From: Cladosporium halotolerans
Taxonomy: Eukaryota
Length of the DNA: 64,000 nucleotides
Direction of reading: 5' to 3'
Assembly: GCF_011745625.1 (NCBI RefSeq)
Contig: NW_027191468.1
Span: 186,001 to 250,000, forward strand
A program made the translations under genes and the position numbers. This document shows positions 18,096 through 20,474 of the stretch, in pieces. Every line of letters starts with the position of its first letter. Position 1 is the first letter of the stretch. The notes beneath the pieces were generated by a model. The model saw only the letters and a list, made by a program, of their open reading frames with translations, was not told the DNA's origin and ran no database searches.

Positions 18096-18555
18096 GATGG
18101 CCGACCGTCTAATACTCTATAGCCTTGGACCGGAACCCGCCGAAGGATATCGTCTTTGCGTGCAGATAGACGGTGTTGAGGCAGCCTCAAACATTTGCGA
18201 TCTGAGGCACGTCATTCGAGCTTCAGCTTCTCCGGGGTGTGGCGTTGGAGCGTTCGGCGTTGCACGCGCGGACTGGCGCATGCTGGAGGCTAGGCTTCGG
18301 GAGCTTCCTGGCCATCAGCATCGACATCTCCTGCCTACAAGGCTTCCGTATTCCATACCAAACATTATACACCAGGCATTCGCCAGCTTTGTTCCAACTC
18401 CCCTGCTCCTTCCTTCTTGAACGAGCTCGGATCTGCATCGAGACAACTTCCGACGATCTCCCCGCGCACGCTTTACGCAACATCAGACGATCCCTTGCGG
18501 GTCTGACGGTTACGTGCAGACACGTCGCAGCGTCTCGTGACCGCAGAGACCAAAA

Positions 18556-20474
18556 ATGTCCGACCACATGGCAGGCCCGAGCCAGGGCCAGGGCATGAAC
18601 AACCTGACCACTTTGATCAAGAGGTAGCTCTTCCCCCATCACTAACCCCTACCAATGCTCCTCCAATCCCCCCTCTACGCTTGATACGTCTGTACCACAA
18701 TGGCGAAGAACGTCAACTACAGCGCCGGCTCGGGGCCTTCAACGCCTAACAGCAATGGAAACAATCCGCTCACAGCTATCATCCGCAGGCTTGAAGCTGC
18801 AACCTCTCGCTTAGAGGATATCGCCTCGACGTCCACGAGCTTCGAATCTCTCGACAATGGCAAGATTGGACAAGCCAATGCGCCCAGGGCCAGCGCGCCA
18901 AACCTCCCTGGTACTGCGGTGGCAGGCGGTTCGCCCGCAGAGGCCCAGAAGACTTCTGCGCCGGAGCTCCCTCCTGCGATCAAAGAGATGGACGAGCTGA
19001 TTGATGGGGATGTCAAAAAGTTCGTAGAGGCGAGCAAAGGCATAGACCCCTTGGTTGAGGGACAGGTGCGTGAGAACGGATAACACATGGGAGGAGGGCG
19101 TTTCGCTGACGTACAAACAGGCGGAGACTACCGCCAAGGCGTTCCGTGACCAGAGGCGCTTCATCGTTACTTCGACCAAGGCCAAGAAGCCCGACATGGC
19201 CTCTGCCGGTTTCTCGGAGTTGATCAAGGATCTCCAGCAAGATATGGGCTCGGTGGGAGACGTGAGGGACACCAACAGAGCGTCGCAAATGAAAGATCAC
19301 ATGGCCATGGTCGGTGAGGGTATTGGTGCGCTGCAGTGGCTCATCATGGATGGCAAGCCTGCGGACTTTGTCGGCGAGGTCATTGGTGGTGCGCAGATGT
19401 ACGGAAACCGTGTGCTGAAGGCTTATAAGGAGACGTGAGTAGCTGCGGTCCTGCGCATGCGCCTTCATTTGCTAACTCCTCGAAAGCGACCAGAAGCACG
19501 TCAAGTACGTCCAGGCGTACTATGCCCTTCTGAAGGCCCTCCAAAGCTACATCAAGAAGCACTACCCGACTGGCCTCACTTGGAACAACAATGGCGTTGA
19601 TGCCACTCAAGCATACCGCGAGGCCGATGACAACAAGACCCCTACAGCTCCTCCAGCGCCTGCGCCAGGCGGTGGCGCACCTCCTCCTCCGCCGCCTCCT
19701 CTCCCCAACTTTGACAACAACCCGCCTCCTCCGCCTCCGCCTGGCGGTGCCCCTGCGCCTGCGAAGGGTGGCGCTGGCGACATGGATGCTGTCTTCTCCC
19801 AACTGAACCGCGGCGAGGAAGTCACCAAAGGCCTTAAGAAAGTCGACAAATCGCAAATGACACACAAGAACCCGGCTCTCCGTGCTCAAAACAGCGGCGA
19901 CAACATTTCGCGCTCGCGCAGCCGTGGCCCGGAGACCAAGCCCAAACCTGCTTCCATGCGCCAGAACAGTGCCGCCAGCACGCCTACGAAGAAGGAAGGC
20001 AAGAAAGAGCTGGACGGTAACAAATGGCTAGTCGAGAACTTCGACTCGCCCTCTGTGCCCATTGAGGTCGAAGTCAGCCAGACGCAGAGCATCCTAATTT
20101 CCCGCTGCAAGAACACCACTATCATCCTCAAGGGCAAGGCCAACGCCGTCAGCATCGACAACTGCCCTCGCTTACAGATCCTGGTCGACACCCTGGTCAG
20201 CTCCGTGGACGTGATTAAGAGTCCCAACTTTGCTATTCAGGTCACTGGCACTCTGCCAACTGTCATGCTCGACCAGGTCGACGGCGCATCGATCTACCTC
20301 GGCAAGGAGAGCTTGAACACAGAAGTTTACACCAGCAAGAGCACAAGTGTGAACATCGTCCTTCCTCCCGCGAACGATGAGGACGACAGCACGGAATGCC
20401 CTCTGCCGGAGCAGCTGAGAACTTATATCAAGGACGGCAAGCTCGTCACCGAGATTGTCGAGCATGCTGGTTGA
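18556..20474 (+). CDS. SRV2: Adenylyl cyclase-associated protein CAP/Srv2
   Basis: Exons 18556-18623, 18789-19065, 19121-19434 and 19487-20474. NLTTLIKRLEAATSRLED (RLE motif), polyproline tract, WH2 LKKVDKSQMTHKNP, CARP domain ending EIVEHAG. Confidence 0.96.

Follow-up and report, generated by a model that had tools for sequence, protein, structure and literature searches.

A Conserved Second N-Terminal Exon Nested in Intron 1 of the CAP/Srv2 Gene of Cladosporium halotolerans

The CAP/Srv2 Gene and Its Two N-Termini

The window analysed here is a 64,000-nt stretch of contig NW_027191468.1 of Cladosporium halotolerans. It encodes CAP/Srv2 on the + strand at 18556–20474, as identified by a Pfam domain search. 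CAP/Srv2 joins Ras/cAMP (cyclic AMP) signalling to actin turnover, and its N-terminal helix contacts adenylyl cyclase and sets the oligomer state. As a CAP family member the gene is unexceptional, and its novelty lies in a second, conserved N-terminal exon inside intron 1. We refer to the 5′ coding exon upstream of this intron as exon A, to the one inside it as exon B, and to the corresponding proteins as isoforms A and B. The CAP_N-CM profile (PF01213) matches residues 25–79 of the B form (E = 7.9e-10; 39.3 bits against a cut-off of 19), and since the match starts at residue 25, the profile begins within exon B. The helical folded domain CAP_N (PF21938; 1.6e-29) lies on exon 3 and the C-terminal CARP domain CAP_C (PF08603; 7.1e-63) on exon 4.

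Exon A starts with an ATG at 18556 (ATG-A) and runs through 22 codons and two bases of a split Arg codon to 18623, which gives MSDHMAGPSQGQGMNNLTTLIKR. Removal of the intron between the donor GT (18624–5) and the acceptor AG (18787–8) leads to MSDHMAGPSQGQGMNNLTTLIKR-LEAATSRLED, an isoform A of 548 amino acids (aa) by count. A second ATG at 18700 (ATG-B; context ccacaATGGcg) opens a reading frame that is free of stops across the acceptor and reads MAKNVNYSAGSGPSTPNSNGNNPLTAIIRR-LEAATSRLED. Exon B measures 89 nt (30 codons, of which the last is the split Arg) and isoform B 555 aa. The gene thus has two 5′ coding exons, each with its own ATG, that lead in the same frame into a common exon 2.

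A first-pass annotation, made from the letters of the region, had described this layout, and every one of its statements on the sequence is exact. The exon and intron coordinates and the 165-nt GT..AG intron are as given; the ATG at 18700 stands in the context ccacaATGG and reads through the acceptor in frame with exon 2; the tract before it is C/T-rich (70% C+T in the window, 69–79% across the 13 Cladosporium-like sequences introduced below); plain retention from exon 1 meets a TAG at once, at 18625–7; and the parallel between NPLTAIIRR at the end of exon B and NNLTTLIKR at the end of exon A is real. The second start is not hidden, as had been claimed, since the NCBI annotation already uses it: protein P0003 (Cladosporium halotolerans, 555 aa), which shows 100% identity over 100% of the B query, starts at ATG 18700 and is without exon A. 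The next-best matches, P0004 and P0005 (548 aa on a 1950-nt contig and 544 aa on a 1732-nt contig), have LEAATS directly after the N-terminus of exon A; this joint indicates that they are spliced transcripts of close relatives.

Three protein searches, pooled, retrieved 250 relatives. Among these, 105 had an A-type N-terminus (ending NLTTLIKR, across Pezizomycotina), 137 a B-like one of at least 11 residues, and 8 were of another kind or truncated. The A/B counts are biased by the B-type queries, and the B-like tally of 137 is inflated because callers of open reading frames (ORFs) that lack intron models can report only B. Gene models of CAP in Pezizomycotina are inconsistent, with the A or the B start chosen among sister species of one genus or order: Diaporthe australafricana has A where D. 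amygdali, D. ampelina and D. helianthi have B, and Cadophora has A where Lachnellula and Mollisia have B. Since public models are split in this way, alignments of the CAP N-terminus among orthologues mix non-equivalent sequences.

Conservation of Exon B

A scan of metagenome contigs at JGI gave 80 loci, hence 81 sources with the window. These comprise 53 distinct introns with an exon A and a GT donor, 18 duplicates, 7 sources in which A is joined to exon 2 (spliced transcripts or intron-less lineages) and 3 in which no exon A was detectable, in two cases because upstream sequence is missing. In 50 of the 53 introns an ORF that opens with an ATG, spans 10 codons or more and shares the frame of exon 2 extends as far as the acceptor; the two control frames contain such an ORF in 8 and 3 of the 53. 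The remaining three introns measure 59 nt (L036, L039 and L053) and have an exon A that matches Aureobasidium pullulans protein P0030, and the B-bearing introns measure 62–219 nt, mostly 120–195. In the window, intron 1 is two to three times longer than introns 2 and 3 (165 nt against 55 and 52 nt).

The closest relatives form a Cladosporium-like set of 13 distinct sequences (the window and 12 loci, at about 78–80% DNA identity). B is 89 nt long and without a single indel in all 13, while the part between donor and ATG-B measures 67–130 nt and aligns poorly, with a mean pairwise identity of 0.44 (0.80 in B). When 15 relatives were aligned to the window with blastn, the alignment was interrupted after the donor and resumed at 18694–18700 in 9 of them. 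The ratio of nonsynonymous to synonymous change (dN/dS, Nei–Gojobori) of B across the 13 sequences is 0.273 in frame and 1.30 and 1.53 in the other two frames, with 14, 9 and 21 variable sites at the first, second and third codon positions. The value stays low, at 0.30, when only codons 1–21, away from the splice signals, are counted; it is 0.37 for exon A and 0.065 for exon 2. Column shuffling, which preserves the tree and the per-site variation, produced a median of 0.82 and reached the observed value in none of 1000 shuffles. A separate Pleosporales-like set of five loci gave 0.283, a value reached by 2 of 500 shuffles. The helix residues of exon A are invariant in the Cladosporium-like set.

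A purine stands at position −3 of ATG-B in 37 of 44 distinct loci, in a surrounding tract that is 32% purine, and a G at +4 in 29 of the 44, so that ATG-B looks like a used start. As these loci share ancestry, a binomial value computed for the purine bias should not be taken as a real probability. Signs of this kind (a conserved ATG, a conserved frame and a bias towards synonymous change in intron 1 of related genomes) had been named by the first-pass annotation as ways to check a coding B, and all were found (50 of 53 introns; dN/dS 0.27). The comparative data support the view that A and B are both kept under purifying selection, and the reading of B as a maintained coding exon is well supported. 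The observation itself is confirmed and far from chance, and judged from these alignments B is a real and ancient alternative N-terminal exon.

Transcript Evidence

Four public sequencing runs were aligned to the locus. X1 is on record as RNA-Seq cDNA, X3 and X6 are RNA by our guess, and X2 is DNA-like. The three RNA-like runs come from three studies and were used as contigs, which show neither transcript starts nor levels and drop rare forms. The 165-nt GT..AG joint (18623/18789) is present in all three. A 1773-nt cDNA contig of X1, with 0–1 mismatches, begins at 18529 and leaves out stretches of 165, 55 and 52 nt bounded by GT..AG, which confirms both the exon A splice and the gene model as a whole. 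Ahead of 18529 this contig carries 21 loose letters that may be the tail of a template-switch oligo; if so, a capped 5′ end lies 27 nt before ATG-A. Contigs of X3 and X6 with the same joint extend up to 18452. Isoform A is expressed.

These data bear on the possibility that ATG 18700 is the sole real start, as in the NCBI model, with exon A being spurious or a mere upstream ORF. The protein annotation does begin at ATG-B, but exon A is joined to exon 2 in contigs of three runs, an A-type N-terminus heads 105 of the 250 retrieved proteins across Pezizomycotina, and the A helix is invariant among the Cladosporium-like sequences. We consider this explanation highly improbable.

For B, X6 provides two contigs, 18709–18769 (depth 9.8) and 18739–18799 (depth 2), the second of which is unspliced across the acceptor; at introns 2 and 3, the sole X6 contig listed has both introns removed. 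The B contigs are the one direct hint of B joined to exon 2, and they fit intron retention as well as an internal start. A second candidate is P0121, a 544-aa B-type protein on a 1783-nt JGI contig without the three introns that are found in four related genomic loci. It is probably the spliced B-type mRNA of a Helotiales relative, with less than 150 nt of untranslated region (UTR) in total. Such a short-UTR B mRNA would lean towards an internal start. Other uninterrupted B-type ORFs were rejected as B cDNA: P0027, P0029, P0037, P0042, P0063 and P0073 lie on contigs of 4–85 kb, which are genomic, and are uninterrupted because those species are without the downstream introns, while P0100 reads in frame through intron 2 and is genomic as well. 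Empty cover was likewise dropped as evidence, both at 18652–18783 in X1 and X3, where contigs cannot show absence, and at 18624–18695 in X6 (with cover from about 18709), where either an internal start or a divergence beyond the 10% filter may be the cause.

All three introns have cover in X2, which looks like DNA of two related strains and is the only run in which the donor at 18623/18624 is bridged unspliced. One of its haplotypes lacks 29 bases, all within 18636–18675 and none in B, which has substitutions only, among them three non-synonymous ones near its start.

The features of the locus are collected in Table 1. In X1, a separate 1808-nt + strand contig ends at 18363 (region 18300–18363), about 90–165 nt before the 5′ ends of CAP (18452 and 18529). 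Since this neighbouring transcript seemingly ends so close upstream, the promoter of isoform A would be very compact.

Table 1. Features of the CAP/Srv2 locus (positions in the window)
Feature	Position	Strand	Evidence
5′ UTR of isoform-A mRNA, shortest 5′ end seen	18529..18555	+	X1 contig start
Exon A, coding part, MSDHMAGPSQGQGMNNLTTLIK-R	18556..18623	+	Spliced to 18789 in X1, X3, X6
Intron 1 of isoform A, 165 nt (55 codons), GT..AG	18624..18788	+	Joint in three runs
Intron 1, 5′ part, C/T-rich, fast-evolving; candidate 5′ leader/core promoter of isoform B	18624..18699	+	Composition, alignment
Exon B, MAKNVNYSAGSGPSTPNSNGNNPLTAIIR-R, contiguous with exon 2	18700..18788	+	P0003 N-terminus, invariant length, dN/dS
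CTCAC, candidate branch site for A-splicing; Leu-Thr in B	18769..18773	+	Conserved bases; role inferred
CGC AG/G, 3′ splice site of intron 1; Arg-Arg in B	18784..18789	+	Sequence, RNA joint
Exon 2, common to both isoforms, opens LEAATSRLEDIA helix (CAP_N-CM motif)	18789..19065	+	Pfam, RNA contigs
Intron 2, 55 nt	19066..19120	+	Joint in X1, X3, X6
Exon 3, CAP_N helical folded domain	19121..19434	+	Pfam, RNA contigs
Intron 3, 52 nt	19435..19486	+	Joint in X1, X3, X6
Exon 4 to stop, proline-rich region and CAP_C/CARP	19487..20474	+	Pfam; collinear with P0003

Bases Shared by Splicing and Coding

The last nine codons of B in the window are AAT CCG CTC ACA GCT ATC ATC CGC AG/G. CTCAC lies 15 nt before the AG and is likely the branch site for A-splicing. 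The sequence CTAAC at 18746–18750 was set aside as a branch site, as it is specific to the window and CTCAC is the conserved candidate. CCG CTC AC is invariant in the 13 Cladosporium-like sequences, third codon positions included. Of the 50 distinct introns listed with a B, 43 have CTN-ACN in the corresponding position, with Leu at −7 and Thr at −6. The branch consensus is loose (YTNAY), and any Leu-Thr encoded as CTN/TTR-ACN fits it. The earlier suggestion that the branch and acceptor region doubles as coding sequence is supported.

Splicing does not account for all of the conservation. Among the 137 B-like N-termini, position −7 is L, V, F, I or M in 136, position −4 is L, I or M in 123, position −3 is L, I, V or F in 129 and position −2 is R or H in 82. 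The splice signals leave unexplained the hydrophobic residues at −4 and −3, the Arg or His at −2 (where any NNY codon suffices), the fixed register and the coding signature of codons 1–21. Residues −7, −4 and −3 of B extend the heptad pattern of the LEAATSRLEDIA helix, as NNLTTLIKR does in A. According to the parts of a review that deal with this region, the N-terminal ~40 residues of CAP are a heptad-repeat oligomerisation domain that is sufficient for binding of yeast adenylyl cyclase (PMC7543520), and in Magnaporthe oryzae deletion of the N-terminal domain is described as abolishing Cap1–Mac1 binding (PMC3435248).

AlphaFold, run with 28 B-type sequences, models the B N-terminus with a helix at residues 23–44 and no secondary structure in residues 1–22; the mean pLDDT (predicted local distance difference test) is 60.6, and the model is used for helix boundaries only. 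A and B differ only in the first ~8 residues of the helix and in a disordered tail, and both rebuild the first turns of the N-terminal helix. The claim that the isoforms have different cyclase-binding ends is overstated, since the core helix (RLEAATSRLEDIA...) is shared.

The tail of B contains a P-x-[ST]-P motif in all 13 Cladosporium-like sequences (PSTP at 18736–18747 in the window; PSTP, PSSP or PASP in L001–L014 and L020), and many Mycosphaerellales-like B tails have S-P at a similar distance before the helix. In these Ser/Thr/Pro-rich tails the motif may be a site of proline-directed phosphorylation.

Two Probable Isoforms From One Gene

We propose that two alternative 5′ coding exons give rise to two CAP/Srv2 proteins that differ only at their extreme N-terminus, and consider this probable. 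Transcription from upstream, with 5′ ends at 18529 and at 18452 or earlier, gives RNAs that carry exon A and are spliced at 18623/18789, which yields isoform A. An RNA that keeps 18700–18788 joined to exon 2 would yield isoform B from ATG 18700. Most likely such an RNA would come from transcription that begins in the C/T-rich 5′ part of intron 1; as transcripts starting inside intron 1 are without the donor, B could not be spliced out of them. In isoform B, the first two turns of the N-terminal coiled-coil, the helix for oligomerisation and cyclase binding, would be formed by NPLTAIIRR in place of NNLTTLIKR, with the hydrophobic heptad positions kept. As RNA, the end of B provides the probable branch site (CTCAC) and the YAG/G acceptor for isoform A. 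If B is expressed, we give an internal start site in intron 1 about an even chance and intron retention a distinctly smaller one, and the two may coexist. In Cladosporium halotolerans itself, B would be translated from such an RNA, possibly from a promoter of its own. Of the original proposal of two promoters and two isoforms with different ends, the two conserved N-termini and the expression of A stand, while the two-promoter part is unproven.

The 5′ part of intron 1 contains a 9-codon upstream ORF (ATG...TGA, 18655–18684), in frame with B, that ends 15 nt before ATG-B, and an ATG 43–67 nt before ATG-B is also present in 6 of the 12 Cladosporium-like relatives. The upstream ORF might serve a B transcript as a short leader, or have arisen by chance. 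Two CCAAT boxes (18652 and 18663) were discarded as an argument for a promoter, as only 3 of the 12 Cladosporium-like relatives have them.

Intron retention is the commonest type of alternative splicing in fungi, and a single promoter could suffice for both isoforms if intron 1 is sometimes retained. The A frame of the unspliced RNA (23 codons, with its stop at TAG 18625) would then act as an upstream ORF, ATG 18700 would be reached by reinitiation or leaky scanning, and the ratio of A to B would be set by splicing at a weak donor. Apart from the general prevalence of retention, this is favoured by the donor itself (GTAGCT, without the usual G at +5) and by the A frame, which stops right after the donor in the window and before ATG-B in 33 of 46 distinct loci. 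Furthermore, the introns of L058 and L068 measure just 62 nt with a 12-codon B and leave little room for an internal start, and the ORFs of P0220 and P0063 span the exon A region, the intron and B, although these may be genomic. In the other 13 of the 46, the A frame of unspliced RNA continues beyond ATG-B, which makes reinitiation impossible there. ATG-A has an A at −3 and is accompanied by a conserved second Met; leaky scanning past both should be inefficient. Among the listed contigs of the three RNA-like runs none crosses the donor at 18623/18624 unspliced, where contigs drop rare forms. Retention as the source of B is in our view the less likely route. In P0220 (451 aa on a 1842-nt contig), L058 and L068 the unspliced frame of exon A stays open across the 62-nt intron as far as exon 2; retention there would add ~21 residues and leave the N-terminus unswitched.

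Several observations weigh against two maintained coding exons. B is joined to exon 2 in one of the three RNA-like runs, X6, whose identity as RNA is itself a guess, and X1 and X3 contain no form other than A-spliced RNA. Among the listed contigs no transcript 5′ end falls inside 18624–18699 and no adapter-bearing start was found, though contigs cannot show starts. The 5′ part of the intron shows no leader-like shortage of upstream ATGs, with 16 present where 19.7 would be expected. The first residues of B are loosely fixed, as the changes V>L (18712), N>H (18715) and Y>H (18718) occur in close haplotypes. Because CCG CTC AC is fixed even at third positions, a constraint at the nucleotide level adds to the conservation, and because the branch site and the AG/G acceptor (last codons NNY-AGG) must be kept, part of the 'Leu-Thr ... 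Arg' conservation is forced by splicing. The loss of B in the lineage with 59-nt introns (L036, L039, L053) implies that it is dispensable there. Lastly, the compared loci are related, so the counts are not independent events.

Some of these points would also be expected if B were untranslated, with the 3′ end of the intron mimicking coding sequence through its splice signals and composition, and with gene predictors choosing B when they miss the short exon A. Splicing would then dictate the Leu-Thr and the final Arg, ORF callers without intron models inflate the 137 of 250 B-like N-termini, X1 and X3 would show A-spliced RNA only, as they do, and the C/T-rich sequence is poor in stops, such that 88 of 1000 column shuffles were stop-free in every sequence. 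Composition and splice signals do not readily produce a frame-specific dN/dS (0.27 against 1.3 and 1.5) that is replicated in a second clade and is still 0.30 in codons 1–21, nor the zero indels in B of 13 Cladosporium-like sequences while the adjoining part of the intron varies by 63 nt. The ATG is conserved with a purine at −3, most B forms have R or H at −2 though any NNY codon serves the acceptor, and intron 1 has two to three times the length of introns 2 and 3 except where B is absent (59 nt). Therefore, it seems improbable that B is untranslated, and we retain the reading of two alternative coding exons.

Distribution and Origin of the Two Exons

B-type N-termini of the form ..NPLT.L[IL][RH]R are annotated in the Dothideomycetes Meristemomyces, Friedmanniomyces and Recurvomyces, and Pleosporales-like B forms (..HILGR.G.I...D.LLT.MVRR) are encoded on many contigs. 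In Helotiales, a 20-residue B (MDDKV[VL]PT[VI]SR.[ED]LTAII.R) is annotated in Lachnellula, Mollisia, Acephala, Hyphodiscus, Amorphotheca, Coleophoma and Chlorociboria, as found in a search seeded with a metagenomic locus. In three Diaporthe species (Diaporthales) the annotated B form is MAPVVVSSDTNQRVTNLLHR. Sister records from these same orders, Helotiales and Diaporthales, are of A type. As judged from these annotations, the arrangement of A and B spans at least three classes of Pezizomycotina (Dothideomycetes, Leotiomycetes and Sordariomycetes) and is old. The short-intron lineage of L058 and L068 with its 12-codon B could not be placed (best named match 47% identical), and we make no claim on Eurotiomycetes.

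In the Aureobasidium pullulans-like loci L036, L038, L039 and L053, intron 1 is just 59 nt long and without an in-frame ATG, and B is apparently lost. L040, which we take to be Aureobasidium-like without having checked it, keeps a 23-codon B in an intron of 150 nt. On the contigs of P0027, P0029, P0063 and P0073 (7–85 kb) the ORF from ATG-B is open to the stop, and introns 2 and 3 are absent. Sister records have exon A and intron 1 (P0071 in Hortaea, of A type, and locus L024 for P0063). Intron 1 thus seems to survive where introns 2 and 3 were lost, which may be just the usual retention of 5′ introns.

A and B share 163 of 368 residues and 529 of 1104 bases over the eight codons that precede the Arg. 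Third-position identity is 77 of 163; recent gene conversion between A and B was therefore rejected, there being no signal of it. The similarity would fit very old homology and convergence on one helix equally well. The layout of intron 1, which runs from the end of one copy of the helix start to the matching end of a second copy, with an ATG and a tail inside, is as expected from a 5′ tandem duplication, though we infer this from the layout only, the copies having diverged too far for proof. Exon A ends in AG/GT and B in AG/GC, so AG/GT does not occur at both copy ends. We know of no published duplication intron whose internal copy is reported as a maintained alternative coding exon.

Tentatively, we suggest a wider scenario in which CAP/Srv2 of filamentous ascomycetes has had two isoforms since before the split of Dothideomycetes, Leotiomycetes and Sordariomycetes, with B perhaps being a duplication copy. 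The A:B ratio would partition CAP between cyclase activation and actin turnover, or would produce mixed oligomers with altered affinity for the cyclase. If so, B gives a different first heptad and a longer disordered tail with lineage-conserved proline-directed Ser/Thr sites. The coding sequence of one isoform would also be the splicing signal of the other, and their outputs would be mechanically coupled.

Comparison with Known Systems

CAP/Srv2 is needed for morphogenesis and virulence in several fungal pathogens, as stated in work on M. oryzae and Aspergillus fumigatus (PMC3435248, PMC12153005). A conserved second N-terminus would mean that the knock-outs and tagged constructs made to date may have mixed the isoforms or lost one of them. 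Since ATG-B is intronic for isoform A, B can be removed without changing the A protein, which offers a clean genetic handle. The locus is also a clear example of joint constraint by coding and splicing, and possibly a record of the birth of an intron.

We found no description of two N-terminal isoforms of fungal CAP/Srv2 in the main texts of open-access papers and bioRxiv preprints. The words 'isoform', 'alternative', 'start codon' and 'intron' do not occur in the main text of the M. oryzae study (PMC3435248), and 'isoform', 'intron' and 'splic-' are absent from the text on A. fumigatus CAP (PMC12153005). Lower eukaryotes are credited with only one CAP in the review (PMC7543520). Yeast Srv2 and M. 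oryzae Cap1 belong to the same family, have the same domain order and have the same N-terminal heptad-repeat helix at stake (PMC7543520, PMC3435248). These studies assume a single N-terminus, whereas the C. halotolerans gene has two alternative first turns of the helix and two tails. Two CAP forms per organism are known from vertebrates (CAP1/CAP2) and Caenorhabditis elegans (CAS-1/CAS-2). Those are paralogous genes that differ over their full length, whereas here it is one gene in which the first 23 or 30 residues differ.

Published cases of introns created by tandem or segmental duplication resemble intron 1 in that splicing removes exactly one copy and restores the frame, and intron 1 holds a copy-like ATG and helix start (PMC3265369, PMC4974935, as far as these sources were available). 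Unlike in those introns, the similarity between the copies is weak here and the downstream junction is AG/GC and not AG/GT. With the fungal alternative first exons and start sites described in the accessible part of PMC9604717 the locus shares two 5′ exons with their own ATG that feed a common body and change the N-terminus. It differs from them since exon B lies inside the intron of A, is contiguous with exon 2, resembles exon A and carries the acceptor and candidate branch site of the intron, and since the second start site is in our case a proposed one. SKI7/HBS1 is likewise a rare fungal case in which one gene makes two proteins through a long-conserved alternative transcript structure (PMC3597508, seen in part). 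SKI7/HBS1 uses alternative splice sites to make functionally distinct proteins, whereas the CAP/Srv2 gene would offer two N-terminal exons for the same domain.

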